Below are positions 11,555-45,528 of a DNA stretch of 64,000 nucleotides, one piece after another. Source of the stretch: Laetmonice hystrix (taxonomy: Eukaryota); contig OZ249436.1 in the NCBI GenBank assembly GCA_965235115.1, positions 14,200,001 through 14,264,000 of the forward strand. Direction: 5' to 3'. The number at the start of each line of letters is the position of its first letter. The first letter of the stretch is position 1. Position numbers and translations under genes: made by a program. The notes beneath the pieces were generated by a model. It did no database searches and had not been told where the DNA came from. It saw only the letters and a list, made by a program, of their open reading frames with translations.

Positions 11555-11617
11555 ATGGCTGACACAGCAGGGACAGTGACAGTGCTACTGGCTGTAGTAC
11601 TTCTAACTCTCCTCTGG
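11555..11617 (+). CDS. Candidate alternative first coding exon encoding a signal peptide (MADTAGTVTVLLAVVLLTLLW) of the ADAMTS-like gene
   Basis: Good Kozak context (gacATGG) with an in-frame upstream TGA at 11528-30. It encodes an uninterrupted hydrophobic core VTVLLAVVLLTLLW, then TGG|GTAAGT, a consensus phase-0 donor matching the phase-0 acceptor at 45324. No transcript evidence is available. Confidence 0.55.
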
Positions 11618-14600
11618 GTAAGTACCAACCAGATGTATATCACGCGCCAAACAATCCTGGGCCAGTGACAGATCATTCACACCATTTCAATCTTTCCCGT
11701 TTCTCTCATTAATTGTAGCCGATCCACTGGAAGTTTGATGTGCAACTACTATAATTTGTTTAGAGAATTCCTCAGTGCCGAGAAAACTGTCTATGATTTC
11801 CATTTTTTTAATAGGAATCAAGGCATTTGATTAGATTATATCTAAGTTATAATATCACAGGATGTTTATGTGCGGCTGCTGTTTCTTCTTTACTTACAGT
11901 AGAGCCAGAGGATATGGCTGGAAAATTTGTCCTGAGCCCAAGTTCTGGTCAGGCGTATTTTGTATCTAGAAAAACAGATACTATCCTACTACCTTATTGT
12001 TTCTGAATATCAGACGTCCTTTCAGACTAACTTTGTTTCCTGCGAACTTTCTGATGAACGCAGCAGACCAAATGTGTTCCAAGTTGGGTCTCACATGTCT
12101 CTCAAAACGGCTCAATTATCACATGTACTTGTAGAAGTGCACCCCAAAAAACAAACATCTTTACTTTAAGTATGCTTTGCGGCCTGTTTCCCTTGTCCAT
12201 AAGGAATTTTGACCTTTTATATTTGCCGTGGTGTTGCCTTACTGGCATAACATGTACTGTTGGAAAGTTGTAAACCGTGACTGGCTTAGTCAACTTCATC
12301 AGCTGTTTTCATATACTTTTCCAAGTCTGGGGTTTATTATGCAGCGTTTGCGAAACCACTTAGGACAGATAATTTTTCGCCGCGTTCATTGTAATATGCT
12401 AACATACCATGGTCCAAAACATAGATATATTTACTCACTAGGGCTAGGCCATGTCCTTTTTCATTCTCTAACGTTGTAGACACTTAAAACATTTCAGATG
12501 ATCCATCATCTGTTAGATTTACATAACTTGATAGCCATTCAGAGGACTTCATGTCCATTGCATACGTTCTGTGCTGTTGGTATTTAGATTATTGTCATTC
12601 GGAGTTTAGTCCATGTCCATAGGATCTAATGAAAGCTTGAAAGACGGCCGCAGGAAATGGTGAAGGCACTCCTCGGGATTCAGAAGTGTTTGTTGAGGGG
12701 CAGTCAATGTAAAAAAATATTTGAATCTTGACGCAAAATCTGAAGAAGGCTCCATGTTGTAGAGTCTGGAAATATAAGATAAGAAATGCCAGACTTGTGT
12801 GTACCGGTCCCGTTATCTGTTGGTCCATAAAATAAGTGTATAGTGTATCTGATTTGTCTATACGTTTCACCCTTTGAAGCAGTATGTAAAGGCTGAAGGA
12901 GTTTACAGTAAATACGTTTCGGATGCCTACACTACAGATATATGAAACACTACATTGTTTTGTACCAGCACTATGTTGTTTTTCAAGTTAAACCTTTTCC
13001 CAGCAAACGCGATTTATAAAGTCGCCAGTTATGCTAGGAATGTCACAGACATACGTGCGTGATGGAAGTCAGGAGTCGTTTCTAGCCTAGCTGAGGTATT
13101 TATAAGATGTTAAAAAATATTACTATTCGTGTTTGCACATCAACGTTCGGAAAGATTATCGTTCATAACTTACGTAATAAGATTATTGGTTATGAATGGT
13201 CACTTTGGTAGAGCAGAACTACTCAGACTGCTCTTGCACTGTTCTTTCTTCCAGAGATTACGGTCTTTAGATGTTTGACATTTGACTAATGAACACGCCA
13301 AACTAAGCGAGTTTCCATATTGTCAAAAGAGTATCAGGTGAAAGATGACCGACGTGACAGCGGATCATTGTGCAAGGTAGCATCCCACTTACGATGATTA
13401 CTTAGGCTATAGTAATTCTAGTTATACACACGGTGGCAGTAACACTGAGGGTAACCAGTGATAGTTAGGGTCGGGGGAGGTGGGGTGGTGATGGCTGAAA
13501 GGGGTCATCATGCACGTCATCTGTCCGCCACCAAACATCCTATTATAGTCCCTCCACCTCGACTGTCTGTGATACAGTGTATGTGTTACGATATTACGTC
13601 CAGGTCGTCGGCACTGGCAGTGTACTTACTGTAAGAACGCGCAAGAACAGCCTTTAAGGGGAGAAGGGGTTGATCATTCACATCGCATCGTTTGTTCTCT
13701 ATGATTTCTCTATTACAAGGTAAAATTCTTTGATTATTCCGATCAAATAATTTGGCGGTGTGACCAGTTTAGGATATCTCTGGGTCTGGCTAACTCGGTA
13801 CGACCCATATTGACCGAATGTGCAGGTCCTCCCCGGTAGGACGGCCGTATTTGTATGATTTGGCCAGACTGCTAGACTGGATATGGGGGAAAGCACTTAT
13901 CTCAGTAGATAGATTTGTATTGAACGGAGATTGAAAACTGTATGTGAGGTTTCATTCTGCCCCTTGTCCGTCGTCCATTGGTGACCTTTGTAAGAGGCCT
14001 ACGTGGATAATAGTCCGTAAGAAAACCGTTATGGCGTCATTCCACAACATTCATATACCGATAGTTGGCACATGTATTAGTAACAGATACGAAGCAAAAG
14101 TATATTTTGGTAAGCTTACTTTTTGTTGATTAAAACTTAGTAAATTTGTAACTTGTTTGCCGTGATCATGTGGAATTTGAATCCCATCACTATAGTGATG
14201 CCTTTTGCTATCAAGGATGTGACTACTGCTGCAGGAACTCGGTTATGGAACAGAGTACTGTATTGCCAGGCTGTACTGTGCCTTGTGTTCTGAAAGTCCA
14301 ACTTTCCTGATCTCAGGTGGGGGTGGTTCATGTTCGCTGTATTGTTCCTGTGGCAGGTGACAAGAAGCGTGACTTATGGTCTCATCGCCTCATTAGAAAA
14401 CCGAGTCTGTCCCAAAGATTGGCGTTTGACTTTAACTGGATCGGCAGATTGCTGATTATAAGACATTAATTAGCGTGTAACTTCTTTTTAATTTTAATCA
14501 CATCTGTCTATAAACAGCTTACATCTCTATCGATGTCACTCGATATAATATATGCGCTCCGTGTTCAATATTTACACTTCCATAAAGTGTAGAGTTTGTG

Positions 14601-15807
14601 ATTGTCAGGTCACAATGAAAGGTGTGATCGTAGATAAGTAGGACACGTCGGAAGGTCCACCGGTGAATAGTTTCAGCAGCATCTTTAAAACTAAACTTAG
14701 GTTGACGTCTGGAATAGGGTAACAATGGTTTCCGGAAAGTATGTCGGTATGTGTGTTTCCAAGTAACAATTTACTGACTTAAGAGTAGTTTTTAGTACTT
14801 TTTTGGGGACAGATGCGTCTACAACAAAGGAGTGAAATGAATTATTAGGGGCAAGCAAGAAGTGTGAAGGCGTGGCTTTGGTTTAAGGTGATACCGTCTA
14901 AGTTACTAAGGGCAGTATGGTCATACAAGGTCACAGCTGAGCTTCACACCCAAAATATGTGTCCTGGTTATGGTTGCGATCTATGCAGCAGGGCATGCAA
15001 GTCACTGCGTCCAGAAGTCGTCGCACTGAGCAGTGCCATATGCGAGGTGTGAAATCTTGGTGGGTTGACTGAGCCTGACACACGTGCCCTGACTCGGGGG
15101 GGGGGGCGTCCCAGTTCGTACCAGTACACCAGAAGTCATACTCAAACAGGCTTGGAAGCAGCAACAGGACTCTTATCATACACCCACAAATCATTCCTTA
15201 TCATTCTCTTAAACGCTATGATTGGGTTCTTGTTGTGTCGAGTTTGTCAGAGATAATTGGAGGGGCCCTATTGGATGGAGACTGCTGGCTTGAGGACATG
15301 TCTTCAGCAAGGCCACAGATATTTCAGTTTTATCAGTTGGGACCGACGATATTTGGAAGGTGGCTAGTTTCTTTAAGTTGTTAGGTGTTCTGTTGGCTCT
15401 ATGATTATCGGCGGCCGAACATCCCTCTTCAGTTGGGGTGCTGTATGTGTGTGGTATATGACCACTGAGGAGGAAAGTTATGAGACGGCGCTTTATTACC
15501 GGTTAGTATAGAGGTGATGAAATCGTGTCACAAAATGGCCGGGCTATAGTCTGTTTCACAATAAGTGGACGTAGGCGCTTGGCCTTCTCCTGAGGAATCG
15601 TAACTATCTAAAGTATCTTTTCGCGCCTGAACTAAATCGATGAGTCTTTTTTTAAAGCAGTGTTGATCAGCATAAGTGATGAAACAAATGACAGCTAGTG
15701 CTCAGGAATGCCAGTTGGGCCAAGCGGCTGTAATGAGTAGGCCTACATACGGTTGTGGCGCCCAGTATGGTTACCGCGGCCGACAGTGATCAATGGTGAA
15801 GACGGCC

Positions 15808-15822
15808 GTGCCCTCTGGCGGC
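15808..15822 (-). promoter_or_regulatory. CTCF-like motif
   Basis: Reverse complement reads GCCGCCAGAGGGCAC, close to the CCASYAGRKGGCR core. Motif match only. Confidence 0.35.
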
Positions 15823-16829
15823 AAGCAACCTCTCGGCACGTGCGTGGTCTAACCACGAGTTAGTTCAGTCTAGTCAGACGACTCCACCCAGTTTCGTCTT
15901 CTCACATCCGTGCCGAAATCAGGACCCAAAATTCAGGTATTCTTTTTTTTGCTCCTGATTTCGTAACTTATCTAAGTGTTTTCATAAACAGAAACCCTCT
16001 TTGGATGGGCCCCACAGTCAGGTGAAATTGTTGCTTTCTCAAGTAGAGAGGGTGTTGTGGGCATCTGCTGGTGGTTTCTCCCGTAGAGCTCTCAGCAGCC
16101 GACCCATTACCAACATGTTGGAGAGGTGGAGATTTCTTGTCGACACATGGTTCTTGTTGCTTTCCTCCCTAACTTGATGGCATGACTTCAGTGATGAATC
16201 TTCTTGTAAAAGTTACACCCTCCTGCTAACACGCTCGATCAATTATCCCCGGCCCATCCCTATTGTCTTATCCACGACCGCCGCGTAATGGATCATGATT
16301 TTTTTGATAACATTGCAGTTTGAGAAGTGAAAGTATTTTATGAACGTGGGTGTCTGTAGAGTGTAAAGTATGTGTTGTCTCCCTCTCTGCTTGTTTTATA
16401 TCGCCCAGTGGACGAACACTGCTCTACACATAATTGTATGCTCCTGCTGTCAGTGAAGCTGACTTCCCATCAGTGTGTTTTGATATCACTACGCAAGTTC
16501 TCTTTGAATTTTGTCCTTTAAGTGAATATTGTGTTGGTAGCGTTCCATGTAGGATTACAGTATCGTCATTTGTATTGTAAGCAGAGTAGAACAAAAAGTT
16601 GCGAGGCTGCAGCCCAACTATAGACTTAAAACTGATATGTTTTTGTACCTCTATCCGCTGACACTTGAAGTAAAAACTACCCACGCGGACGGTGACAATA
16701 CACAAATATATAAAACAAGAGACAAAAACATGCTGAATTCTTGGGCTGGTTCCTCCCGTTCTCAGAGGATCATGTACACTGTGGACAGGGCCAGGGCCAA
16801 CCTGGGGTTGACCTTCTAGTCGGATAACA

Positions 16830-16843
16830 CTGCCATCTAGTGG
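16830..16843 (-). promoter_or_regulatory. CTCF-like motif
   Basis: Reverse complement reads CCACTAGATGGCAG, an exact match to the CTCF core consensus. Motif match only. Confidence 0.45.
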
Positions 16844-18719
16844 AATAGGAGTGTAGTATTTACAACAGGCATGTGAGCTTACGGCTTGGATCATCCCGTT
16901 TTCCTATGTCGGGTGTGGGTGACAGTGTCTTTAGACCAAATAAAGTAAAGTTTCATCTGATCAGTCCAGGAGGTGATTCCACATGCCCAAACTTACAAAG
17001 TTGAAGGAATCAGTTACGTACCGTCCAAACGGTCAAACGCACTGATCCTTTTATATGAATCCTAGTGTGTAGTGTTATTACTTTCTTCTTAACACGAACA
17101 GCCTATTAGTTCAATGTGAAATATATGCAAGCTGAGGCACTGTAAGCTGAGGCGACAGGGGCAGTTATATTATTTATAAGTTACCATAGAGATAGGTGCT
17201 ATATTTATAGTTCTAGATATCACACATCAAAAAAACGTTTCAATATCATTTGTCCCCAGACATAGTTTTCCCCTGTGCATTCAGAATACCTAGAATGAAA
17301 GTGAACGTGAAAAAGCCACTGTGAGATGGATGTAAAGACGTCATTCAAGAGCACTAGGTAAATTTTTACTCTCCACAATGACAGCCACAGAAAGTACTGC
17401 CGTAGAAAGTTGAATCAGGTGTTTGACGGCGAGTTCCTCCCATCTCGGCATGAAGTGTATGTACATTTCTCCCTGTGTGGTAAGGCATTCTGGATGTGGA
17501 GTATATTTTGTACCTCTAAATCCGAAGCCCTCCCCCCCCCCGGTTGTGGATTAAGTGTACACTGTGGCCGTGGACACGCCAAGGGGCAGACTCCCAATCT
17601 GATAATGAAGTCCCCTTGTCCAGCCCATTGTTGGCTGTCCACTGTGCTTGGCGGCAGTGCTTGGCGGCAGGGGTGGAGCAGTAGGAATCTAATAAATGCA
17701 GCTACCTGACCGGAATGAGGCCTACTCTCTGGACTAGTACTCCGACTGGCGAATGTATACTGATCGATTTGTAAGGTAATTCCACCATCGGGTCGACCCT
17801 GCTGATTACATTTAGTGCCAAACTCTTGACTCTGAAATTACAATTGACCAGCAGATGCAAATGTGTGCAGAGTACATTATGATTGTGTTTTAAGCATAAA
17901 GATAGAATACCGACAGATATAAAGAAATCATCCGGAGCAAGTGATATCGAGAATTGAAGTTTTTTGTCGGTTGAGAGCGTTTCGTGGTCTAGACGGGTAA
18001 TGTATTGTGTAGAGTGGCAGGTATGTATTTCCGAGTGATAAACGTGCTACACTTTTATACCCTACTACAGAAATCCATTTAACACCTTGACATTGCTTCA
18101 CCCAAACCATCCCGTATCACCTTACACCCCTGGCTCGTAAGTGTGAAGTTATTTTGAGCTCCCTCCATAGGAATGTCTCATGAAACCCTTTCATCAGAAA
18201 TCAATTTGTGTAGCTTAATCCCAACAAGGTTCAAAGCGTATCAGAGGCAAAGACACGTCTTGTTAAGTTTAATGTTGGTCCCATTTGAAACCAGTTGGTT
18301 CCATATGTTAGGGCTTCATCAGAGGCTGAGGCCGAGCCAGTGTATACCGCCGGGGTAACGTCCTTCTGGGTCACGGTCGGCCTTGGTAATGGAGCACCAG
18401 GGATTGCAGCATGACAGTGTGCAGATTGAGGGTGGTGTACACGACATCCCACACCCACATCCCACAACACCACTTCCACAGGGACCCGGCCACAAACAGC
18501 CATTACAGGCAAAGATAACTTATCAAGTCCCTAGATAAACAGGATTTCAAGTCAATCTTTATCTGTTGTGTGCCAGAATGCCATCCCCCTTTTCTCAAGG
18601 ACTAACGTCTCTCAACGGGCAGTGAAAAATATGTGCATCAGAAAGAACCATCAATTGATTCAGGGCCCCGACGTCTGGAGTCTCGGTTAGTGAGAAGTGG
18701 TAAATCAAGCAACCTTCAA

Positions 18720-18787
18720 AAATGTATTATTTATTCGGTGTGAATGTAAGATAAATGTATAATTTATTCGGTGTGAATGTAAGATAA
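18720..18787. repeat. 33-bp tandem duplication (2 copies)
   Basis: AAATGTATWATTTATTCGGTGTGAATGTAAGAT occurs twice head to tail. Confidence 0.85.
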
Positions 18788-19464
18788 GTAGATAGGCAGT
18801 GTATGATTAGAGATGTAGCGATTAAACCTCACAAGAGGAAGTCTGTCGAGCGGACGTCAGAATCGTATAAATTGTACACAGACTGTCAACATGTAACATG
18901 TTAACGAACACATGATGACACAAGTATAACATAAAACATCACACTATTGCTATCCTAAGCTCCTTCAGGTGATATACCGTGTTGAAAAATGACCAGTACA
19001 GATAATCAAGAACGTTCGATATTTTATGTCAGGAACAAGGATATCTGAAACGCTATAAACTGTCTGGCAGATAATGTGTCGGCACATATAGTTCAGCAAT
19101 TTACCAGCAAGATGATACATCAAGAAGGAAGATGTACGTCTCTCCTATGACATCTCATATACTGCCTGGTACAAGTATAAACGGTGTATCCCCTCCAAAT
19201 AAGGCGAAAGATAAAGGGAGAATGAATATATCCGTATTATACAAACATAAGAAACGTTTTGAATGTCCCTGTGGTTGTTGTATAGAAGGTGAGTGACCCT
19301 CGTTGTATTGGTGTGGCCCTCGTATTGAATGAACACCTATTGCAGCAGCGATATCATTTCAAACATAAACCTGGCACAAACTCCCAGGTCTGAAACTGAA
19401 CAATAAGTGATCGCAAAATTGTTTGACAGCAAGCAAATATTGCAACCTGCCATCTCATGAAGCT

Positions 19465-19878
19465 GAGGCGCGGATCTAGAGGGGGGTTCGGGGGGTTCGA
19501 ACCCCCCCCCCCTACTTGGACCCCAAAGGGCCCTTCTTGTCTAACTTTAAGTTTGCAGGCCTGCACGGATCCAAGGGCAAGGGGAGTGCAGGGGCACACG
19601 CTCCCTTTTTTGAAGAAGTGACAACAATTATTGGTAGGCTAGGCCTAAATGCTTTGAGAAACTTTCGTCTTCCGTCACAATTTCTTTCTCCAGATGCCAG
19701 GAAATAGCGCTTTTTTTCCTTCTAAATTCAAATATTTTCCGGGGGAGGTGCGCAGACCCTCCCCTGCAGATGTTCGCCTGGCGCCTTTAGCGCTCGAGGG
19801 CGTCCCCCCGTTGAGGTGCTGTATCCGCGCCTGTTCTGTAGGTAGGTGCCCTTTGAGAAGACCCTGGATCCGCGCCTG
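19465..19878. mobile_element. CAG...CTG-type MITE with a related element nested inside (about 19556-19833)
   Basis: Left end (g)AGGCGCGGATCTAG pairs with right end CTGGATCCGCGCCTG. G/C-run subterminal tracts are present. An inner pair CAGGCCTGCACGGATCC ... GTATCCGCGCCTG is also seen. TSD is unclear. Confidence 0.7.
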
Positions 19879-21157: not shown

Positions 21158-21253
21158 ACGATAGAAATATCTATTGTTAATGTTATCGCCTCCTGTAGTA
21201 ATATCTACTACGATAGAAATATCTATTGTTAATGTTATCGCCTCCTGTAGTAA
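21158..21253. repeat. 44-bp perfect direct duplication with 8-bp spacer
   Basis: ACGATAGAAATATCTATTGTTAATGTTATCGCCTCCTGTAGTAA at 21158-21201 and 21210-21253. Confidence 0.9.
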
Positions 21254-22754: not shown

Positions 22755-23410
22755 TGCCCCTATTCCACACAGACCACGAATTTCACGAATCCCTACGAAT
22801 TGATGAATTCTCGGATTCGTAGTTTAATTTTAATCAGTTCGTGAAGTTCTTAACTGATTCTTATTTATTCGTAGTGAGTTCTTTCAATTCTTGAGTGATC
22901 GGGAATTCGTGGCAAAAGTTTTGAGCTGTTCAAAATTTTGTCCACGAACTCTTGATTCCAAAAAATCGTAGTTAATTCGTAACAAATTCGTAGTGCATTC
23001 TTAGGCATCGTAACTGAGTCGTAATAGATTCGTAGGCACTCGTAGGTATTCTTAACTCATTCGGGGATTCGGGAATTCGTGACTTGACCACGATCCGGCT
23101 ACGAATCCTTCCACGAATCCCACGAATACACACCGAAGCATATTCTTAACTGATTCGTAACTGATTCCTAACGTTCTTGCAGTATTCGTAATGGATTCTT
23201 GTAAATCGTTATGAATTCTTGACAATATTTCAGCGGTTCGAGCAGAATCCCACGAATATTCGTAATTATATCGTAGCTTTATCGTAACAGAATCGTACAT
23301 CATCACGAATTGGACAAGAAATTTGGAAAATATCACGAATCCTCACGAATCCTAAAATTTATCAAATCCTGGCAATTCGTGGGATTCGTGGTCTGTGTGG
23401 AATAGTGGCA
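22755..23410. mobile_element. 656-bp PIF/Harbinger (Tourist-like) MITE
   Basis: 28-bp-scale TIRs TGCCCCTATTCCACACAGACCACGAAT and ATTCGTGGTCTGTGTGGAATAGTGGCA. TAA TSD at 22752-54 and 23411-13. The interior is rich in CACGAAT/ATTCGT motifs. Confidence 0.88.
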
Positions 23411-25679
23411 TAAGAACAGAAATTGTCACACATCCCGAGGTAGACACAAGTCCTTCAGGTCTGCAGCTGGTTGAGTGTATTTATATGAATAAGAACAGGT
23501 GGGAATCCATGGTTTGTACCAAACTTCATCATCATTGTTAGGGTCTTCCCAAATGCTTGCTGAGACAGGACCAAATTGTTTCTTGCATGCATGTACTCCG
23601 GCACCCACCTCGTGACAACTTTTTATGTAACTGGTGATTATTTCTTTTTTTCGTTATCACTAAAAGTAATCGCAATAAGCGGAGTCCAAGTTAATTGGTA
23701 GTAAGAACTGTCTGCGGCTGATTGGCCTCAATCTTAACAGGATCAGCCGGGTGCAGTTTTTATACCAGCTCAGTGGGCATTAATAAATATTCAGGAAATT
23801 ACATGTTGAATTACGGATCATGTAGAGAATGTGAGAGGTATACTTCTCTACCGTAATCTAGTAAATCAATAAAGTGAGTGCCAAAAGAGGATTGCCAACA
23901 AATGTTGTTAGAGACGGTATGTGGAGGGAGAGAGAACGACTAACCAGAGATAATATTGATGTAACGGTTTCTTTAAATAAATAAATGCTGAATCGCCGCA
24001 CACAAATATCAACCAAGCTTGTCCGATTCTTTTCGGGAAGCATATTTGACATTCTAACACAGGGTCACTTGTGTTGTCGGGAACTGAAGCATGATACAAT
24101 GTATGTGGACTTGACATCTCATATTTGTCCGAGTGCAAATGAACAAATGATTCAGGATGATGTTATTCTGCTTGTTTGTGTTTCTTCACGGTAGGAGCCA
24201 GGCTGCATATGGCACCTTTGTATGAACATTTTGTTATCAAGTCCCACTCCATAGGTTTTCGTTGCAGATCATAGTAAATTGGGCTGTGATATGGCTGAAA
24301 GGAAAATACACAAGTTGTATGGCGTTCATCCTGCGAGACAATGGTGAGACTGTTATCATTGTGCTGGCATGTTGACTTCAGCGATGACACTATAGTCATG
24401 GGAAAAATGGGCTGTCTGATCCTGGCATATGTGTCAGTAAATATCGTGTAGACTGTAGAGGCAGTTGATTTAAGTGGATTGGCTCAGTAAACCAATAGAA
24501 GTGAACCAACACGACATCATATTCATGGAGGCAGCTAAGAAATTGGAGCCACTGTTTTATTTGTATTATATGTGATATACAGCGATACAGCATGCGGACA
24601 ACCGACAGAACCTGTATTTGGTGTGTTATTTTGGAACAGAATAAGGTTTCAACAGGGTAAGAATCGCTACCGCTCCTTGTCAGAATCCTGTTTGGAAGCC
24701 AAGTTACCAGCCTCTGTAAATGCAGGAACCGCCTCCGACATCTCCTTGGGGCGTGCTCCACGGCGATCCTTTTCATTTAAGTGGTGCTTCTGGTGTCAGA
24801 TTAGGACAAACCAGAGCACTCGCAGTCAACCTGTGGCCAGATGTTGGTGACGGGTGTTTCGAGACAAATATACGGGATTGACCTGTGTTGTATTGAACCG
24901 GTCTCTGCCAGCCCTGCTGCTGGCCTTGGCCATGGTCGGTGTGATATAACAACACACGTGTATAGTTTCAGCGACAAGGGACCTACCGTAACGTGAACTC
25001 CTAACCGTGTTAGGCAGTGGTGAGCAAAGGATATCCCTAACATGCCTTCACTCCACGACCAATGGTGCTGGGTCTTCCATATCGTGAGTTATCGGTATGG
25101 TACTCAATACATGAAGGTTGCAATCCATACGAAGGCCTGCTGGACCGCCTGCTGGGACGGCTGATGTATCAGGGGAGTGATAACAGCCAGACGGCCGACA
25201 TTGGAAGTTAACCAGAAACCAGAAATTTAATTCTTAGGGGGTCGGAAAGAACAGACGAGTGGTTAACAATTAAAATTGATGTACCGGCACAAGTCTTTGT
25301 CTCCTTATTCGCTCTTAAAGAGAGGGTTAGCCCAAGAAGATTGACTTTAATCATCGCTGTTTAGACATTACCCCATGCATTTACGCAATAGCAGCGTGTG
25401 ATGGCTCTCAGGTTGGTGATTATTATGGTGAGGTACATTCTTCAAGATCTGAAAGCCATTCTATGGAAAGCCATTCAGGCAAATGTACATTTAGGTTCAA
25501 ATAAATATGGTAGTTTAGGAGTCTCATGCCACCCTTCCATAGCACCAAGCTGTTCGGCTTAGTTTGGTCTATTTCAGATAATATCTTTGTGTTTTTATTG
25601 GCCATTAAGTTTGACTGTTGCCCCATTAAACAAACATGATTACTGTACTGATTCACGGAGAAAATCAATATTTCCATTA

Positions 25680-25893: not shown

Positions 25894-27975
25894 GGTGCAT
25901 TGCCGCCGCCCTGAAACCCCACCTTAGATTCCGTGAATGTTTTTTTTAAGCAGAAACACAGTGTTGTCACCCAGATTACATTCCGACATAAGATTTGGTG
26001 GAAAGGACGTAATTGACAAAGGTGATGGTATGTTGAACGTCCAGCGAAGTCTGTGACCGTGAACAGATAACGGTTCATGTTTCATGTATGTATGTAGAGG
26101 TAAGAAGACTTTTGTGTCACACTGCAGGGTTGTAACTGCATAGCTCGAGCATGAGGCCGAGACAGTGGCCTCCTCTGTCATTTTGCCATTTATGAAAAAA
26201 GGTGCTGATTTTTATGAGTGCTAGGTGGCGAGGTCACAACACAAACCTTTAATACATTCGATCACTTTCACCTGACGTTTGCTGCAGGCTGTTTCCACGC
26301 CACTTTGAGTGTGGCCTGGTAATAATGACTACCGTACCGAGAAGATTTTGTTAGATAAGTTTTAACTGTGATCGTGAAAGGCTTTGATGAATAAGGCTTC
26401 TTGCAAAGTCCAATTCCTGCAACATGTTAGAATTGATTCACAGCTTACAGAGGTCCTTTTATCGGGCTTAGAGCTAAGTATTGTCAGAGGAACAACAACT
26501 AGAAGGAATTCGGATAAGGGCAACGGATTAACTTGATTTATGGCCGCATTTAAAATTGCTGATGAAGCTGGAGTTTCTCAACGCCAACCATTATACCACA
26601 TAGTATAGTAATCCAAATCCATTGCCTACTTCCGACTTTCTCACTAGTTTGATACGAGTTGCGATAATTATTTAGTATGACAAATTAACTTCCTTGCACA
26701 TTATGATGGCATTTAGCGGAACTTTCTTCTGAAGTAATGTCGGGTTAAAACGGTAATTCACTGATGTGTCATGAGTTGTCATGCAGCTCCACTTACGAGT
26801 CAGTATTCCACCACAGCTACTGTGTTTACTCAGAAGCAGGACAATCAAAATGAAATAACAAATGGTAGTAGAGCACAGAAAATTAGGAATTCAGGTCAGA
26901 GCAGTCAGGCAGCGACAGTGATGACCATTTAATACTTAAGGGGTACACTTATATAGTGCCATTTATGGCGCGAAGGGCAGACAAACTACCCCGTCCATTT
27001 GCTTCACGTTTCACGGTCTGAGAATAAAATGTGAACCAAGCAGTCGTTTTTAACTGGTGCTCAGTCAGCGAAACTCCAGTTATATGAAATGCTCTCCAGA
27101 CGGCCCAATCCATTAAGTACAAAGCTAAAGTAAGTGGCTAGATGGCCAAGCAGAGATGAAATTTTACACTGGTTCATCCATGGTCATAGTAATCACTGAA
27201 CTAAAAGGCTTATTACATTCAGCGAGCAATGTATCGGGTCTCCCCTCACTAGCTATGGAGTTTCTGGCTTCCGGTGATGTACCCATAGATCGGGGTCGTT
27301 TTATTCAGCTCCAGTGTATCATGTCTGGATCACGGAGAAACTTGTGGCAAAAATCCAAAATACCACGATTACAGCTTTCTTCCTAGCCTTACCATCAATT
27401 AAAGTACACAGCTCAACCTTGAAATACGGTGGCCGATTAGTGCCAACGACGAATACAAATTCAAAACGACGAATACAAAAGCAAAACGACAAATACAAAA
27501 GCAAAACGACAAATACAAATTCAAAACGACGAATACAAAAGCAAAACGACAAATACAAAAGCAAAAACGACAAATACAAATTCAAAACGAAGAATACAAA
27601 TTCAAAACGACAAATACAAAAGCAAAAACGATGAATACAAATCCCTCTCACACCACAAACAACAACTTGGCGTGAAGCACGTTTACAAAAAGGATATCCA
27701 TGTTCCGGGCCGAGAGTCGACCAGGACGAGTCTAAGTGTAAATGTGGGACAGGGGTGAGCTGAGGTGACATCTACCGAGGCCTGCTATGGAGTACCTGAA
27801 GGGAAATTCTTCGACTTCCAGCTCGACGTACATACATTTACTGAGACACCGACCATAACTTCGACTTCGACTTCGACGTAAACTTCGACTTCGAGTTGGG
27901 AGGCACATTCTCAAACTCGTTCCAAAGGCAACCTTTTTAGCGTGTTTGGGCTTTGGCGTGGCTCCTCCGTCCATG

Positions 27976-28090
27976 CAGTGGCGGATCCAACGGGCCAGGC
28001 GCGGATTTAGGGGGGTCATTGTTGGGGGGGGGGGGGGCGGGGGCGTTGCCGGGGCGGGGCGGGGGCACCGGGCGGGGGCACCGAACCCCG
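27976..28090 (+). mobile_element. Truncated left ends of two CAG-type MITEs
   Basis: CAGTGGCGGATCC at 27976 and CAGGCGCGGATTTAGGGGG at 27996, followed by G-runs. The same termini occur in elements at 19465 and 40020. No right ends. Confidence 0.6.
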
Positions 28091-28941
28091 CACCGGTGTG
28101 ACTAATTACCGAAATCTACCGAAATCTACCGAAATCTACCGGAATTCAGAAACCCCATGACTAATTACCGAAATCGACCCCCAAACTTACCGAAATGGAC
28201 GTCTAGTTGTGTTTGGGAGCCCCCAAACTTCCCGAAATGGACCTCTAGTTGTGTTTGGGACCCCCCAAACTTCCGAAATCGACCTCTAGTTGTGTTTGGG
28301 AGTCCCCAAACTTACGGAAATCGACCCACTCTAATTGGGTTTGGGAGCCCCCAAACTTACCGAAATCGACCTCTAATTGGGTTTGGGAGCCCCCAAACTT
28401 ACCGAAATCTGGGGGCTCCCAAACACAACTATAGAGGTCGATTTCGGTAAGTTTGGGGGCTCCCAAACAACACTAGAGGTCGATTTCGGTAATTTGGGGG
28501 CTCCTATAAACCCAATTAGAGGTCGATTTCAGTAAGTTTGGGGCTCCCAAACACAACTAGAGGTCGATTTCGGTAAGTTTGGGGGCTCTCAAACACAACT
28601 AGAGGTCCATTTCGGTAAGTTTGGGGCTCCCAAACACAACTATAGAGGTCGATTTCGGTAATTTTAGGGGCTCCCAAACCCAATTACAGAGGTCGATTTT
28701 GGTAAGTCTCGGGGCTTCCCAATACTATTAGAGGTCGATTTCGGTAAGTTTGGGGGCTCCCAAACACAAAGTTCTAGAGGTCAATTTCGGTAAGTTTGTG
28801 GGCTCTCAAACACAACTAGAGGTCGATTTCGGTAATTTTGGGGGTCGATTTCGGTAATTAGTCATGGGGTTTCTGGATTTCGGTATATTCCGGTAGATTT
28901 CGGTATATTCCGGTAGATTTCGGTAATTAGTCACACCCGTG
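28091..28941. mobile_element. 851-bp foldback element with CAC...GTG ends and inverted 42-bp tandem arrays (CACTA/Chapaev-like)
   Basis: Ends CACCGGTGTGACTAATTACCGAAATCTACC and GGTAGATTTCGGTAATTAGTCACACCCGTG. A ~42-bp unit (CGAAATCGACCTCTAGTTGTGTTTGGGAGCCCCCAAACTTAC) occurs about 5 times forward, then about 10 times inverted, with the axis near 28409. No TSD. Confidence 0.8.
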
Positions 28942-31900
28942 GACTAGTAGGAATTGGAACGAGTTGCGCATGTCCGAGACTTTGGCTCCCTTATGCTAAT
29001 CTCCTACCGCAGCGTCTCAGTATCGCCAGAACTAGTCAGAGTGCAAACACCCCTGTCCACTTAGACTCGCCCTGGTCGTCCCTGGGCCCCGAACATGGAT
29101 ACCATTCTTGTAAGCGTGCTACACGCCAACTTGTTGTTCGCGTTTGTGATCTCTCTCTTGCATTTGCGTGTTTGAATTTGTTTTCGCGGTTTTTGTTTTG
29201 TAATTGCCGTTTTGGCGTTTGCGTTTGTGTTTTCTCTTTTGTTTTTGCGTTTTTGAATTTGTGGTCGTGGTTTCTGTTTTGTAATCGCCGTTCTAACTTT
29301 TGCGTTTGTGTTTTCTCTTTTGCATTCGTCGTTTTTAATTTGTAAACGTGTTTTCTCTTTTGCATTCGTCGTTTTTAAGTTGTAAACGTGTCTCCTCTTT
29401 TGTAATCGTCGTTGGCACTAACCGGCCACCGTATTGAAATGACAAATACGTGACTATTGGAACATTTTAATTATCTATGTTCATTCCCCATCAGTTTGAA
29501 ATGTTTGGCAGATGTTTATTTCTGTTGGTCCCGAACCATGCTTCCATGGCTGAGATGTTGGTTGTTTCATTGAACACAGCGATTATATTATACACATGAG
29601 CAGAGACAAAGATTGGGATCGCGTTGTTCTATTCTGAATTGTAATAAGTCTGACCGCAGGCTAGACCTGACATATAACTGCACAAGCAAGCCCCTACATC
29701 ACCCATAACAATGTCACACCACTAGCTGTGTGTGCCAGCTTTGTCAACTTAAATCATCAAAAAGACGTACTACAGAAGATGTATTTTGGTGTCCTATTTG
29801 GCGGCCTTTTGTATCAGAATCTTGAATCACGCGTGTACGAAAATTTTTCTTGGTTTCCAACCTAATAGGACCAGCCCCTTTCTTGTCTCTGTTTTTGAAG
29901 GGTGGATATGGGTTCTGCTGAACACATTTATTTGTGTGTGTTCAGGAGATTGAACAGAATGTATAATTACAGTGCCTGCCAGAACTCTGAAAATATAGGA
30001 TAAAACATCTACCTTTTCTCCCTTTGTCGTGAATGGAGGGCATGTTCCTCTGTGCTAGTCGATTACTTAATGTCCTGAAGTGTCAGTCAAAACATATAAA
30101 AATATTTCCATAACTCTGATTCTGCAGATCATAAAATGCACTTGTCATCCTTTAAGAGACCCTGACGAGGTGGAAAGGCACTGAGTGTTAATTGTTTCCC
30201 AATGCCTTGCAGGCTTTAGCCGATCAACAGTGCAAGCTTTGTTTGTTTTTACATGTTTTACCTTTAAAATCTTATCTCAAAACGACATAGCCGACGCAGA
30301 AATTAATGGCTAATTCAGGATAGGCGTCTTAGAGCATTTTTTCGCAGCTTTTGATGATCAGCCATTCTGCACCACGCGGATCGACAACTTTCCCCATAGA
30401 TTGTAACCTTTAAGACACTTGGCCCATCACATGTTAACAGCTGCAGAATTGAATCGTGTTTAACACTTTCACATCGCTAACAAGGCGCTTGCACGAACAC
30501 TTTTTGTGTCTTCAGGTGCTTCATTTAAACTAAAATATATAAATCAAACGCTTGTTAAAATGTAATCGGGGGAACATTTATTTCAAGCATGATGTCAAGG
30601 TTCGTGTTTTATGACCATTGTAACAGTGAAGCTGCTATTGAATTGTGATCTGTTTGTACATGTCCCGCAGCCTCACAATGCCAAGAGAAGACGTACAATA
30701 TTGAAATATTGAAGGTCCACGTCTTCAAATGCTGCCAAACGCGAGCCAGCAATGAAGATATAGGAGCGCGGTTGTACACAAACCATAGCAACCGAACCGA
30801 CTGTTCTGGCACAGTGTCAACCTGGGAGACAGTCGACCAGTGTTTAACAGATTTTTTATACGGAAAAGCTACCTGAGTTTAGAGCACTTTTTTTGTCTTC
30901 AAATGCAGTGTTCTTTCTTCCTGTAGCCAGTTTCTTTGAGAAAAGCAGGGCCCATATATCCAGTAACAGGTGAAGCGCTGGGAAAGTTCTGCAGTAAGGG
31001 GCTTCATCGCTAGCTCAAGTAGCTTTGAAAACCTCTGCGGTCGATTATCTTCTCAAATATATTGTATGACAACACAGTGCTGCCTCAGTAGAAATGTGAG
31101 TCAGTCTGAATGAAAATTAAGACATTGCGCTATATGCGATCTAGAACATTTGTCTTCGATGGCATCGTTCGTGACAAGGAACATTTAGCGGAGAAACTTG
31201 TCATATATTGCTTTCCACCTTCGCCGATGTAACATGAAAACACGTGCAACTTTCAACAGACATGTCTGATGCTGGCCTATCAGCTGGGGTTGCGTTGGCG
31301 TTAGCGAACAGACACGTTGCGTGCAGGCAATAGATTCCCTCATATATAGAAATATGTCTCCACACAGCCAGCAAGACTATGAAATAAACTGTGCATTGTA
31401 TTCTTAATTACCGGGTGCTGTCTAAGGAACCGTCTTCATGTTTGCTAAGAAGCTTGTGCTGAAGAAAGCTAGCAGATTCCAAGCATGGGTGTGGTGGAAA
31501 GACTGGGCAGGGCAAACCGAACTAGAGGGTTGGTCCAAAGAGTTATATTACGCTCTTTGGTTGGCCCCCGGCAACTCACTGATTGATGTCCTAACATCCT
31601 CTCAGATTTATGGACTGTAGGATTAATGCACAGGTTCCCCATGATAGTGTTTTAGTGTTTCATATCACGCCTGTTTCGGAATGTTGCTGCTTGAGAAACA
31701 TAATTACATGTATATTCTCATAATTCCCCTGCTGTCATATTGAACTAATGAGAATGTTGTCGGTTGTTTTGACGGTCTGAAGTCGGTGCTGGTGGCTTTA
31801 CCAATATTGGCCGAATGACCGTCTTATTGCCATTCGAGCGCTCGTTATCCCCATGCAGATTGTGGTCTGACAAGTCGCGATATTTTGTGTTTTATACGGT

Positions 31901-38360: not shown

Positions 38361-38385
38361 TGGGGGGGGGGGGCGGGGGGGGGGG
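38361..38385. repeat. Poly-G tract
   Basis: Two long G runs separated by a single C. Confidence 0.8.
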
Positions 38386-40019
38386 CATAAATTCGATCAG
38401 AAGAATTTATATAACGATCGTTGTCCTCGCCTTTTAATGTGTTAAAAAGTAGGTCACACCCAGAATATTCTCTGTTTGCAGTCTGAATGGGCCCAACTTT
38501 AGACTTTTCTGATAAACCTATCAGGTCATTTAACTAAGGTAAAAAAATAAGCTTACTCCTACGCTCACGCTAGATCCACTTCTGTAGATATGACTATCGT
38601 ACCTCGAAACACCCAGTAGTTCTCTCTCGTGTCCAATCCAATCTGAAGTTTTCCATTATAAAAGTTTTAATGTAGCCAAAGTAAAATACTAGTAACTAAA
38701 ACATGATGATGACCACGAACCTGGTGGGGCCACCCCGTGATATCGCCACCACAGCGACACTCTGCCCTGGGAGGAGGGTGGCAACAATTTGGTTGGTTTC
38801 CGTCGTTTTTGTCGCACCAGATGGTTTCTGATAGTGACAGTGTATCTTGTTGCTGTCTGGTTGAAGTACATGTACATACATATATTAAACCTACAAAGCA
38901 ACCCAGCGACAGCGACCTAAACCTTGACAAGCTAAGCATGAAACGACTAGATCTGGCCTGGTGGTGTAAAATTCAGGTGACACGAACCCTTTGACTTGTA
39001 CAGCATATAAAAGAAAACCACAGACACTGGCGAGTATTTAATGAATCCCAGGTGACGGTTCTGTAAGAGAAAAAGTGGAAGCGAACGGTATTTACTCCTT
39101 CAGTTAACTTCAGAATCTGCAGACCAGCCACGAGCTGAGCTGGACCATCAAACGGTAACCGGCAGCTTGTATGTTATATATAGCGGGGGTAAATAATTTA
39201 TATTCCCTTTAATATGTCCTGAACACCGCCACCCCCCACCTCCACCACCACCACCACCACCTCCCCAGCTCGCTGTTGTAAGAGCTTTTATGTCTGGGGA
39301 TATGGTTTTTGAGCATGAAGAATGTCATATTAAAAGCCCTTGTCAAGGTTACTAGCAAACTGAGACAAATTTCTTCAATCTAAAAACAGTAGGCCTATAA
39401 ATGCCGATATGGTATCGTTCGATAACTTGGAAACCAAGTTGCTTCCTCTAATGTTACGTGACCAGAGAATCAAGTACAATTTGAAAAACAAGCTAGAATA
39501 GTTCCGACATTCGTCTTTATCAGTAAAATTATCCTGGAAATATTTGTCTGATTTTACAGTAGCTACTATATCCTCCAACTAACTAAATCAGTAAGAGATG
39601 ATTTCGTGTAATAAAAGTTCGCCCGTTGAACCATGTTTGACATTGGCTCAAATGTAGCCATGTTGAACTCTGACTTTATGTAACAATACGAAGAAGGATG
39701 TAAAAAAAGTTCCTGTTCTTAACATTTCCTTCCTGTTTATCTTATTGTATTAATGGATTATACTTTAGATTATCCTTAGATTCATAGATTCATTCCTTAT
39801 GCAGCGCAAAATGATTGGCAAGAGAAAAGTTAGGTAAGAAATCAACCGTTGGTTTGAATTCCCCATTTTGTCTTCAGTGGACGATAGAGACCCTGAGAAC
39901 TTGGTTATTGCATAGGGTATGAGAGCATTAAAATCTTCTGTTGAAGGAAACTTTTGTCACATCATGGCCTTGGTTGCAATCAATTTGGGGTTGGATTTTT
40001 CGATGTGTAGGTGTAGGCG

Positions 40020-40180
40020 CAGTGGGGGATCCAGGGGGGGGGGGCGGGTCCCCCCTGAGATTTTCCTATTTTTTTTATGAAGATGCATTAGTACAGTCGC
40101 AATCAAAACATGACAAGCGGATCAAGGCTAAACATTTTTTAGGTGCCCCCCCCCCTATCAAAATCCTAGATCCCCCACTG
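40020..40180. mobile_element. 161-bp CAG...CTG MITE
   Basis: TIR CAGTGGGGGATCCAGG and CCTAGATCCCCCACTG. Flanks TAGGCG and TAGGTG may be a 6-bp TSD with one mismatch. Confidence 0.8.
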
Positions 40181-41235
40181 TAGGTGTACTTAATGCAATT
40201 ATATAGGAAGTATACCTACACTACACGTAATTACATCGAAAAATTAGAGAAAATCACCACTCTCTCGTTATATTATTGCTTGAATAACCAAATTGTTGAC
40301 ACAGGGTAGCTTTTTACTTTCTGATTCAATGTAGCTTGAAGAAGTAAGTCCGAGTGTGTCCAAATTCTATGCAGGCATGCATGAAAAACAGTGTCATTTA
40401 AACTTCTTTTGCAACTTTAAACCTCAACATCTTATTGTACAAGCTCGCTCAATTTACACTCTTTCCTCAGTCGGTATTGTTTTTTATCTTGGTGACCCAC
40501 TGACCCCCTCCAGTAATCAGCATCGAGGGATATGTAGGCTTTTAGGCAGGCTTGCTTGTTGTCTGACCAGACTAAACAACCGTGGTAATGCGCCATGTGA
40601 CATGGTGACTGGAATTCTTTTACAACTCGCGCCATACCGACTCTGCCAGGCCCGTAATCAGCCTGCCTCCATCCACAATACCGCCGCCACATCCGCTTCT
40701 CGGCCCGCTTGTTTTGTTGATGTGCTTCAAAAACGTAAGGACGCAAGCAGCCGTCTGTGCACCCGTCCATGCTTCTTAACACATAGTTGGTTTTTTCTTT
40801 TATTTTCTTTCACATTTAAACCAGTAGTAGTACTGGTATGCCGGAATGTTTATTCAAAGGCTTCATGTTTTTGTTGTATTATGTATCAGATGTTCCAGCC
40901 ACAGATGCATAAGCTTAACTTTGACAGGATCAGATAATAATGGCGCGAGGCTTGTAGGAAGGCTTTCCGACTTGTTCTGTTCTGTTGGGGAAACCATGTA
41001 AGGTGACACCAGCAGATTTAATCCGCAAAAGTCAACGTACCTTTTACATTAGAGGCAGATTCGTTCGGTCGTAGCAACAGCTAACTTTCTAAGTTTATAC
41101 TTTCTAATTCCGTTTCGTAGCTTTGCAAGGTTTTGGCCCTAATTGAAAAACACAGTTGGCGAACGACGTCATGGAAGTATGACGGGCCTTGGGAATGAGG
41201 GCGGAGCAACTGGGAGGGGCAGGGAGAGTCTTTTC

Positions 41236-41287
41236 CTGTCTGTATGTCTGCCTATCTGTCTGCCTGTCTGTCTGTCTCTCCCTCCCT

Positions 41288-41352
<65 letters not shown>

Positions 41353-41408
41353 TCTCTCCCCTCTTTCTCCCCTTCTCTCTCTCCCTCCCTCCCTCCCTCC
41401 CTCTCTCT
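41236..41408. repeat. Compound microsatellite (CTGT)n-(CCCT)n-(CT)n
   Basis: Directly visible; it explains the low-complexity ORFs at 41104-41505. A MITE right end GATCCGCCACTG follows at about 41485-41496. Confidence 0.95.
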
Positions 41409-41764
41409 TCACTCATCCTTGTTCCTTTCCTTCTTTAATCTCCTTCGAAAGGGTGAGGTGGGTGGCGTGGGAGGGGGGGGGGAAGATCCGCCACTGACTT
41501 TATAGTCAAATACTGTACTGAGTGGTTGTACAACCGAATAGTTATACGGTCCACGGACCGATATTAGCATTGGCGTGACGCTTTAACGATATTTGTAGAC
41601 GGAGTGTCTCATTGATGATATCCAAGTACCGTGAAGATTGTAACTGGCAAAATTAGGTTTCGAATGTGACTAATCTCGAGACCCAGCGGACAGGGAAACG
41701 GTAACATTCCTTATGATACCAATCTGGGAACGGGGGTTCCTTACATAATATGATGCACTTCATA

Positions 41765-42604
41765 ACCAGGAGCTAATTCGATATGTATCATTCCCTGCGC
41801 TCATCCTGTAGACATTCATCTGTTATGTTTTGTTTGGTTACACCAGGAGCTGTTCGATATGTATCATTCCCTGCGCTCATCCCGTAAACATTCATTTGTT
41901 ATGTTTTGTTTGGTTACACCAGGAGCTGTTCGATATGTATCATTCCCTGCGTTCATCCCGTAAACATTCATCTGTTATGTTTTGTTTGGTTACACCAGGA
42001 GCTGTTCGATATGTATCATTCCCTGCGCTCATCCCGTAAACATTCATTTGTTATGTTTTGTTTGGTTACACCAGGAGCTGTTCGATATGTATCATTCCCT
42101 GCGTTCATCCCGTAAACATTCATCTGTTATGTTTTGTTTGGTTACACCAGGAGCTGTTCGATATGTATCATTCCCTGCGCTCATCCCGTAAACATTCATC
42201 TGTTATGTTTTGTTTGGTTACACCAGGAGCTGTTCGATATGTATCATTCCCTGCGCTCATCCCGTAAACATTCATCTGTTATGTTTTGTTTGGTTACACC
42301 AGGAGCTGTTCGATATGTATCATTCCCTGCGCTCATCCCGTAAACATTCATCTGTTATGTTTTGTTTGGTTACACCAGGAGCTGTTCGATATGTATCATT
42401 CCCTGCGCTCATCCCGTAAACATTCATCTGTTATATTTTACTTGGTTACACCAGGAGCTGTTCGATATGTATCATTCCCTGCGCTCATCCCGTAAACATT
42501 CATCTGTTATGTTTTGTTTGGTTACACCAGGAGCTGTTCGATATGTATCATTCCCTGCGTTCATCCCGTAAACATTCATCTGTTATGTTTTACTTGGTTA
42601 CACC
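41765..42604. repeat. 76-bp minisatellite, about 11 near-identical copies
   Basis: Unit ACCAGGAGCTGTTCGATATGTATCATTCCCTGCGCTCATCCCGTAAACATTCATCTGTTATGTTTTGTTTGGTTAC. The ORF track repeats every 76 nt. There are no unique spacers. Confidence 0.97.
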
Positions 42605-45323
42605 GGCAGCAGAGGATTGATTCGCAAGAATACGACGGCTCGAAATTTGAAATTTAAAGGATGGAACTCATTTTACTACCGATAAACAAGCAATATGGAT
42701 GTGGCCACACTTTATGTGCAGAATTGCGAGAGAGTGTTAATTAAGGTGGATCATGGGCTTTAGAATGCGGTCGTCCTCTTCAGTTTTCCGTTCAGTCGCT
42801 GTATCAGATATTGTTACGAGGGGTGTACATGAAAGTGACGGTGTACCTGACCGAAGTGCTTGATTTCAATTGGCTGACTTAACGCTCCCCTGTCTCTTTG
42901 ATCTTCATCAGCCTTCACCACGCCGAGTTGATCGTATAATTGTTATCGGAAATATCGGCGGTAAAACACTGCAAGTGTTGATTGAATTCTTATCCTTGCT
43001 GCAGTGAGGCCACACAAAATATTACGGTGTTTTCCCTTCGTGTTGCATCTGTGACATCCAGTGTCCTCCACAAATACTGACGGGTCGACACATTTGTCTC
43101 TGTTGTCGGGGTTGTTGTAGTTTTTCGATAGGTTATTTTATTGTAACCATTCGCCAACTGTTTATTTTTAAATGAGAAACCTAATTGTTTTCCTTCATTT
43201 TGTAATCCCCTGAGTTTAGTTTGAGATGCAATATATCATATAACAGGTGTGCCCAATATCGTTACACACATTGGTCCCTACAGTCCTGCCAGTTCTAACG
43301 TCAGGTCTGGCTGAACCACCAGCCAACCTGTTAATATATGTCAGGCCAATTCAAAGAGGTCCTTTGATGTGAATATCTCACAAAATGATCAGTTTTGTAC
43401 ACGACAGTTTTATCCGGTAAGATCCTTATTCATATCACGTGCAGATGTGTAGCGGATGTCAGATGTCCAGGACAGTGAACGGTTCCCAGAGATGGAAGCG
43501 TCTACAAACTCTAATCGGGCAGAAAGCAGATGTTTTGATTTAGTTTGGAACCTCTTGAAACCACACAGAAAGAAATGACAATTGCTGGCACCACCAGTCG
43601 ACGAGTTGCAACCTCTGACACATCTCACGGTTCCATGCCAAATCAGTGTCAGAATTCAGTGGACTGTACAGAGACAACTGGATCTCACTCTCCCATGTAT
43701 AACAGTGACTCAGAGCTCCCTATCTAAGGTCCCGCCTTTCATAACGAGACGTAAGCGCCACCGGGAAACGCCACTCCCATTGTGTGGTAAACGATTGTTC
43801 TATCCTTGCTGTGACTGTTATAAGATCGTTGTGGTTATCTGGAGTTAGATTCCGTCTGTCGATCTGAGGACTGGTTGGTTCAAGACACAAACACCTGATT
43901 GGATCTTGTGATTGCAATAGATATCTTAGTACAAGGCTTTTATATGTTACTTGTTGACAGTACAACAATATCATGTGATATATTGAATTTACGCCCTGAC
44001 AACACCTTGACAATTTTGTCAAAGGTTGTGTATGGTGGACGCGTAAAGACATCTTCCAACCGCCATGGCTACCATTTACATAAGTTAACATCAATCCCGT
44101 GCAGTTGTGAAAAGGATCTCCTTCACATCATTGAGTTTTATTACTCTTGAAAAAAACGGAATGAGAAATATAAGATAAGTCGACTGTAAATGGGGGTGAC
44201 ATGGATAGCAGCCTTAATGAGGGCGAGTCCAGCAAGTCCAGAAACTCAAACCAGAGTGAATGTAAAACGGTTGAATTTACTGTTCTTTATTAGACCAATA
44301 AGTCCTCCGAGCCCAGCATGCCTTAATACGGGACCACTGTCGTATTAACCAAATGAATGTATCAATGTGTCAGATGTTAACAGAGGTGCAAGTACGTTTC
44401 CGGCTAAAACAAATATATATCTGTGTATATTAGACGTTGGAAGTGAGCTAGCGACCTAATTTTTAGAAAGCATTTCCCCTCATTCATTTACGACTTACCA
44501 CTCCCTTTCCATGTATATGTCAAAATTATCTTAGCCAACGCTCATGGCTGCATTAGAAAAAGACAATCATCTGCTGTGTGACTATCAGTTGTATCAACAA
44601 TAAGCTGCTCTATCGGTTTTTCACGGAAACTCTTTTTTTCCAAAAAGAGAGCCGCTGTTGGTCCTTTTTTTGGTCCTGTTTGGTATTTCCAGTAACGTGC
44701 ACTGAGGACTGACTGACTGTCACATAGCCTATAATGAATAAGCACCCTCCCTTTTTAACTGTGAGACCCTACTGTAAAGGACTTGCATGCATAGGCAATG
44801 GAATTATCATTTTTGGTTCACGTTACTTTACCAGGCAAAACAAAATTAGTATCATGGTGTATTTTATTCCCTCAATGCAATAAAGTCTTAACTGGAGGCC
44901 AATGTAGGTGCAGTACCATTTCAAGATGAGACATCAAAAACAAGTTTCTTATATTGAACTTATTACTGCCTTCTGAGGCAGAATAATAGGCAGTTAACAT
45001 GAATCTTAAAGCGTCTCATGTGATCTTTTGAATAATACCGAATTCATGTGCATAAATATTGCTAAGCCAACAAGAAATTACAAAATGAAAAATTTCATGA
45101 GCCCTCGTTCTTTGCATCTGTACTTGTACGAAAATATCTCAAAAGGAAGTGATTTACGAATTAGGTATTTTGATTTCACTCAAATGTCAAAGTTTGGCAA
45201 ATAATCAGCTCAAAGAATATCATCCTAGCGTTTGCTTTGCCGCTTTCATTAGCCGAGGAGGGGTGGCGGCTGGCTCTCGTCTAGCAGTTTAGTTTAACGA
45301 GGTTTTCTCCATTGGTGTTGCAG

Positions 45324-45528
45324 AGAGTCGGCTGTGATGGGGTGGTGGACTCGGAACTACAGTTTGACAAGTGTGGCATATGTGGAGGGGACAACACGTC
45401 GTGTCACATCATCTCGGGCATCTTCACGCGCCGAAAGCTGCCCTTCGGCTACAACAAGGTGGCTACAATACCGAAAGGAGCATGCAATATCAACATCACC
45501 GAAATCATGCCCAACAGGAACTTTCTAG
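45324..45528 (+). CDS. Internal exon of an ADAMTS-like protein (THSD4/ADAMTSL4-6 type): end of Cys-rich module and start of spacer
   Basis: Translates RVGCDGVVDSELQFDKCGICGGDNTSCHIISGIFTRRKLPFGYNKVATIPKGACNINITEIMPNRNFL, with the hallmark GCD..DKCGxCGGDNxxC and GYxxxxxIPxGAxNIxI motifs. Acceptor ttgcag| (phase 0) and donor |gtgggt (phase 1). The subfamily call is less certain than the family call. Confidence 0.93.

Follow-up and report, generated by a model that had tools for sequence, protein, structure and literature searches.

A candidate leader exon for a short ADAMTSL6-beta-like isoform in Laetmonice hystrix, with apparent counterparts in other bilaterians

Short forms of THSD4 and the Laetmonice locus

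Vertebrate THSD4, also called ADAMTSL6, is known in a long and a short form, and here we describe a predicted exon that would give a related gene of Laetmonice hystrix its short form: positions 11555-11617 (+) of a stretch of 64,000 nucleotides (nt) from GenBank assembly GCA_965235115.1 (contig OZ249436.1, positions 14,200,001 to 14,264,000, forward strand), which we call the window and to which all coordinates below refer. In the human gene, variant 2 is reported to arise from an alternate promoter and start codon and to encode 658 amino acids (aa) with a distinct N-terminus (PMC8559271, available portion). According to the accessible parts of three papers, mouse ADAMTSL6-beta shows selective expression, in embryos and certain adult organs, and binds fibrillin-1 and TGF-beta (PMC10850197, PMC8667168, PMC12153830); the vertebrate short form is described as an extracellular matrix protein, with fibrillin-1 binding and microfibril assembly known for mammals only (PMC10850197, same portion). 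Drosophila loh, a likely ADAMTSL6 orthologue, has a short larval transcript, C, whose role is called elusive (PMC3708815, PMC5606597, excerpts), and its authors note the parallel between the two isoforms of fly and mouse (PMC3708815). Finally, Caenorhabditis elegans Punctin/MADD-4, an ADAMTSL3 orthologue, is reported to use alternative promoters for a long and a short secreted form (PMC13142758, in part).

These systems resemble the Laetmonice locus to different degrees: (i) Vertebrate short forms carry a leader of 24-28 aa joined to an SIGCD-type exon, which has the same boundaries as the window's exon at 45324; the leader meets it at the same residue, and the product loses the first TSP1 repeat and most of the cysteine-rich module. 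However, the vertebrate exon encodes a whole signal peptide and a short linker, whereas the window exon stops in the hydrophobic core; the cut of the window form would probably lie within the shared exon, possibly with loss of its first cysteine, and the binding of fibrillin-1 and TGF-beta is shown for the mammalian protein only. (ii) LohC likewise comes from a short transcript with its own timing, and the short forms of other flies have a hydrophobic leader at the matching junction, from which we infer by analogy that the LohC breakpoint matches it too; unlike the window's gene, those of flies have lost part of the cysteine motif. Figure S1J of PMC3708815, which compares the domains of the isoforms, may already show the common breakpoint. 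(iii) Automatic 'isoform X' models of protostomes (Ruditapes X2, Pomacea X3, Patella X2/X3, Lineus X3, Lingula X4/X5, Centruroides X3, Folsomia X2 and others) have the same junction and a core-only leader of similar length and make-up, but no sequence identity with the window leader. (iv) Punctin/MADD-4, as described, is also an ADAMTS-like gene with two secreted forms from alternative promoters, but it belongs to another subfamily and its short form lacks the spacer as well, so that the breakpoint differs.

The vertebrate form is therefore published and the fly parallel noted, and the protostome forms are present, undescribed, in database models. Our literature search, with most subscription journals outside its reach, found nothing on conservation of the isoform across bilaterians or on a split signal peptide. 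The two-start design has so far been studied mainly in mammals, and the mammalian short form mainly as a fibrillin-repair reagent.

The leader segment and the exon it would join

We read 11555-11617 as the leader exon of a beta-type short isoform of a THSD4/ADAMTSL4-6-like gene, and give this reading, which rests on the sequence and its relatives, a probability of roughly 0.78. From the ATG at 11555, which has G at -3 and +4, 63 coding bases (21 codons, an n-region followed by a hydrophobic core) lead in phase 0 to the donor GTAAGT at 11618-11623 (+), where the core stops; an in-frame stop lies at 11528-11530 (+), 8 codons 5' of the ATG. As anatomy, and not as a transcript, this is an exon with its own ATG in the intron before an xVGCD/SIGCD-type exon and in a compatible phase. 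The first-pass annotation, made from the letters alone, had claimed an ATG in good context behind an in-frame stop, a 21-codon hydrophobic leader ending at a phase-0 donor and, downstream, a phase-0 acceptor exon of an ADAMTS-like gene offering a plausible cleavage site, and all of this holds. Its 'perfect' donor is perfect on the intron side only, the exon side reading TGG; the donor scores 4.9 bits with an approximate matrix, and GTAAGT occurs 14 times on the + strand of 1-45323. The segment does not contain a complete cleavable signal peptide: the exon stops within the hydrophobic core, the sole site in it that fits the (-3,-1) rule of signal peptidase falls inside that core, and the net charge of the leader is -1. 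An out-of-frame upstream ATG in weak context opens an 11-codon frame that overlaps the start (11544-11579, +) and, judging from its position, could lower translation from the ATG at 11555.

The putative partner, at 45324-45528 (+), is 205 nt long and is entered in phase 0, its acceptor AG ending at 45323, and left in phase 1. It encodes the end of an ADAMTS cysteine-rich module and then the beginning of the spacer, matching Pfam ADAMTS_CR_3 (PF19236, positions 89-115 of 115) and ADAMTS_spacer1 (PF05986, positions 2-39), both above cut-off; a separate profile search gives the exon an E of 7e-36. The named relatives nearest to it are THSD4/ADAMTSL4-like proteins and not ADAMTS proteases: the best full-exon matches are Paralvinella (70%), Lineus (67%) and Owenia (65%), and the ADAMTS5 and ADAMTS13 chains reach 62 and 32 bits against about 90-105 for the THSD4/ADAMTSL4-like relatives, scores that come from different searches. 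Our trees have about 150 columns, of which the window row fills 45%, and do not properly sample punctin, ADAMTSL2 or the proteases. The quick one places the window exon in a protostome cluster with a Shimodaira-Hasegawa-like approximate likelihood ratio (SH-aLRT) of 93; in the careful one Paralvinella is the nearest row, most of the branching stays open and a row of papilin architecture falls inside. ADAMTSL4 and ADAMTSL6 are placed in one clade in the available text of PMC8667168, and the invertebrate gene is probably co-orthologous to both. Neither tblastn with 5 homologues nor 5 profiles found another ADAMTSL exon in the window (best other E 0.26), which implies introns that exceed 18 kb downstream and, should a long form exist, 45 kb upstream.

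As a separate observation on the shared exon, many long metagenome and protist proteins (P0037-P0046, P0297-P0300 and similar) carry 6-31 tandem copies of its opening cysteine motif, some of them together with integrin-beta, lectin or sterol-sensing domains, which suggests that this short motif is a self-contained mobile module.

In the mechanism that we propose, transcription would start from an internal promoter in the long intron, near 9900-11550, and the leader would be spliced in phase 0 over 33.7 kb to the exon at 45324, the two frames being compatible. Its hydrophobic core would take the product into the secretory path, and signal peptidase would be expected, from the (-3,-1) rule, to cut 4 or 6 residues into the shared exon. 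The secreted product would lack the first TSP1 repeat and most of the cysteine-rich module and would, by homology, retain the spacer, a variable linker, six TSP1 repeats and the PLAC domain. By analogy with mouse ADAMTSL6-beta and fly LohC, such a form would probably be a non-enzymatic matrix organiser, made at other times or places than the long form.

A scan for ATG-to-donor segments of 12-40 codons on both strands of the window, with an approximate donor matrix, gave 11555-11617 as the best signal-like segment on either strand, ranking highest in both hydrophobicity and donor strength among the 5 that pass loose thresholds. None of 200 dinucleotide shuffles of 1-45323 reached the candidate's own scores in phase 0, thresholds that were set post hoc; 18 of the same shuffles yielded a segment at the moderate threshold, 54 at the lenient and 112 at the loosest. 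From the window alone, the leader exon is likely but not surely real. The relatives add a second test: a ten-position profile without a donor term, built from 31 non-redundant leaders of other species, served to score every phase-0 ATG-to-GT segment of 10-40 codons in 1-45323. The window segment ranked first of 499, with 9.7 bits, a score above 27 of the 31 leave-one-out scores of the leaders themselves; the runners-up have non-consensus donors, and it is the only one among the top candidates with a consensus donor. By this measure the feature spotted in the window is the one that its relatives predict for this intron.

Short forms in other animals and the age of the design

From 368 collected proteins we kept 185 of at least 500 aa that passed filters for the junction and the spacer, filters that lost some true cases, such as the short forms of a tardigrade and a hagfish. 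By their N-termini, 91 of the 185 are long and cysteine-rich, 45 have a hydrophobic leader abutting the xVGCD junction (a short leader whose last eight residues are hydrophobic), 18 have a full signal peptide at the same point, 3 have a hydrophobic leader ending in Q, 19 have other N-termini and 9 are truncated at the 5' end. The 45 leaders reduce to 31 non-redundant ones, with a median of 18 aa and 18 of them ending in L. They are not read-through of the intron, since in 30 of the 31 the final residue is one for which the intron's last codon could not code. The named core-only leaders all belong to protostomes (bivalves, gastropods, the brachiopod Lingula, the nemertean Lineus, a scorpion, a millipede, a barnacle, a springtail and insects), and the tardigrade shows one as well; the full-signal class comprises a bryozoan, a crinoid, a hemichordate, the hagfish and jawed vertebrates. 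In a second tardigrade model, P0173 of Hypsibius, the short-form leader sits inside a long form, probably a fused model that hides an alternative start.

Fifteen pairs of short and long forms from 13 species, hand-picked for having both forms in one cluster, show no difference from the junction onwards over the rest of the short form in 15/15 cases, with at most one common residue before it. Several short forms lie on Logan/ENA contigs of 2.4-5.7 kb, each with the complete multi-exon frame, which are probably spliced RNA; one such form, P0064, groups with the annelid Paralvinella (96/73, careful tree). Long forms are found in the annelid Owenia and in P0001, the sister of P0064. The Lineus short form has no cysteine-rich match and lacks one TSP1 stretch, and its predicted fold (mean predicted local distance difference test score, pLDDT, 68.5), which does not address cleavage, has a helical leader, spacer strands and TSP1 repeats. 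The invertebrate two-promoter design that the first-pass annotation had inferred is supported by these species: gene models and transcript-sized contigs from many protostomes show it at the same junction, their first exon likewise ending in the hydrophobic core, and the domain loss expected of the product has a counterpart in Lineus. Its statement that vertebrates make a beta isoform from an alternative signal-peptide exon agrees with the available text of PMC8559271 and with the vertebrate leaders, which join the equivalent exon at the same residue.

Whether the design is ancient or convergent had been left open, and its spread favours an ancient one, at least within protostomes. Judged from its distribution in sequence databases, the short form was very likely inherited from the protostome ancestor and is not new in this lineage, and the odds also incline towards inheritance from the bilaterian ancestor. 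The alternative that survives best is that the short form has several origins, protostomes and deuterostomes at least having gained it independently, since a large phase-0 intron before a self-contained exon is an easy site at which to gain a promoter and a leader. The leaders share no sequence likeness, and they are of two types that divide largely by group, core-only in most protostomes and full signal plus linker in deuterostomes and the bryozoan; moreover, Lingula (P0211, P0213) and Patella vulgata (P0261, P0265) each have two distinct leader exons at the same junction, so that leader exons have been duplicated or gained more than once. Set against this, the same junction recurs in at least 9 phyla, and one origin followed by a change of the exon's end would be simpler. 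On balance we consider multiple origins rather unlikely, without dismissing them.

To our knowledge, alternative promoters are rarely conserved across phyla, and if the short form is as old as it appears, a function of its own is implied. With a common breakpoint, knock-outs of one small exon in a fly, an annelid or a mollusc would directly test what ADAMTSL6-beta is for, and the matter bears on how THSD4 variants that hit one or both isoforms are interpreted in aortic disease. It also concerns annotation, where a 63-base exon 34 kb from its partner would escape gene finders. The breadth of conservation and the split signal peptide raise the case above routine annotation.

Competing explanations and the cleavage site

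Several observations weigh against a conserved leader exon at 11555-11617. Between 9 and 27% of the shuffles yield such a segment at lenient thresholds, and the leader has no sequence homologue beyond its hydrophobicity. The set of homologues is redundant and consists mostly of automatic gene models, with classes and thresholds defined after inspection, and such models also invent first exons at the junction, where 19 of the 185 have non-signal N-termini. The only named annelid short form, that of Paralvinella, ends like intron read-through, and none of the lancelet proteins examined is a signal-bearing short form. Orthology is left unsettled by trees of about 150 columns, and with zero long-form exons within the window the status of the exon as 'alternative' is an analogy.

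This last point could also mean that the exon is real but is the gene's sole first coding exon, the long form having been lost in this species. The 45 kb upstream hold no long-form exon, and in the clusters examined Watersipora, Anneissia, Ischnura and Paramacrobiotus show only forms that start at the junction. However, the gene has very long introns, the 18 kb downstream holding no further exon either, so that upstream exons can lie beyond the window, and long forms exist in Owenia and beside the short P0064; we regard such a loss as improbable.

It is equally improbable, in our judgement, that a chance hydrophobic frame stands beside a chance GTAAGT, or that the segment is the first exon of a nested or crossing gene, with the true leader outside the window. 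The moderate-to-lenient matches in 18-54 of 200 shuffles and the 33.7 kb between the two exons speak for this. Against it, no shuffle reached the candidate's own scores, nothing comparable exists on the - strand or downstream, and a core that ends exactly at a phase-0 donor is the shape that the homologues predict. Nor is another host gene evident: none of 135 + strand frames, 122 of the 133 frames of at least 58 aa beyond 11000 (repeats excluded) plus 13 upstream, passes the Pfam cut-off, a scan that would miss short exons, and the two sub-threshold Pfam matches among them are both downstream only.

A further possibility concerns the protein and not the junction. If the leader stayed uncleaved, it would be a signal anchor, tethering the short form to the membrane with all four cysteines of the shared exon kept. 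The leader exon of protostomes encodes no cleavage region, and 14 of the 31 leaders, like that of the window, have no net positive charge; cleavage within the shared exon, at 4 or 6 residues, would moreover remove the first of its four alignment-invariant cysteines. Most leaders, however, have 13-23 aa, and many of the cores are too short to span a membrane. Sites fitting the (-3,-1) rule lie 4 and 6 residues past the junction, and although flies have lost this cysteine motif, their positions 2 and 4 past the junction still fit the rule. The vertebrate short form, too, is described as an extracellular matrix protein (PMC10850197, in part). A tethered form accordingly has long odds against it.

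We prefer a cleaved, secreted product. In most protostomes the leader exon goes no further than the hydrophobic core, and the cleavage site is probably contributed by the exon that follows; vertebrate leaders, to judge from their sequences, would be cut within their own exon, keeping all four cysteines. We take these cysteines to pair among themselves, an assumption made from the structure of ADAMTS13, for which the papers searched gave no confirmation. On that assumption, the cleaved protostome short form may carry an unpaired cysteine. The fuller picture, of a two-promoter design already in the bilaterian ancestor and conserved since then, over more than 500 million years, and of a protostome cut within the disulfide subdomain that frees an N-terminal cysteine for dimerising or for cross-linking to matrix fibres, is speculative, and we hold it to be unlikely as a whole. 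Use of the segment as an internal cassette, an in-frame exon of 78 nt opened by the AG at 11539, is unlikely in view of its GAG and poor pyrimidine tract.

Upstream region, intron and repeats

The candidate promoter and 5' untranslated region, 9900-11554 (+), contains the window's most GC-rich kilobase (10001-11000, 0.54) and a TATA-like word at 11261, to which a role in initiation can be assigned tentatively. By CpG ratio there is no CpG island upstream. None of four long frames in 9900-11554 has a Pfam match, and the one that was tested has no Atlas match; a coding role for the GC-rich 9900-11100 was rejected, since its variants are not synonymous in any one frame and the tested frame lacks an Atlas match. 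Over 8500-14500 the contigs of three DNA-like runs span exon and intron alike, with no joints. Among 40 listed of 57 places with substitutions none lies in 11324-11654, and in two runs the contig across the exon differs from the window solely outside it; this DNA variation says nothing on constraint at the exon, since the intron has an equally long substitution-free gap at 11867-12709. At 10510-10710, some 900 nt before the leader, a short purine-rich stretch is a small genomic repeat, to judge from the many additional contigs that align to it in all 3 DNA runs. Unlike it, the leader exon draws no extra repeat contigs, a weak hint against a transposon origin.

The predicted intron, 11618-45323 (+), measures 33,706 nt; it has no further ADAMTSL exon, and none of its scanned + strand frames is Pfam-positive. 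Within it, at 27400-29420, an element of about 2 kb looks like a nested foldback-type mobile element: its long inverted arms, built of tandem units of 20 and 40 nt, enclose an inner, likewise inverted, array of units of about 42 nt. A tandem array at 41700-42680 comprises about 12 copies of a 76-nt unit, with cores 96-99% alike, and is adjoined by a CT microsatellite at 41220-41400. Short frames at 23050-23650 (-), 48280-48660 (-) and 53010-53370 (+) resemble, by eye, decayed transposases of DNA transposons; the last, the only one covered by a scan of + strand frames, has no Pfam match. Near the start of the window, at 6374-6474, a near-perfect hairpin with 49-nt arms 94% alike and a 3-nt loop is possibly a miniature inverted-repeat element.

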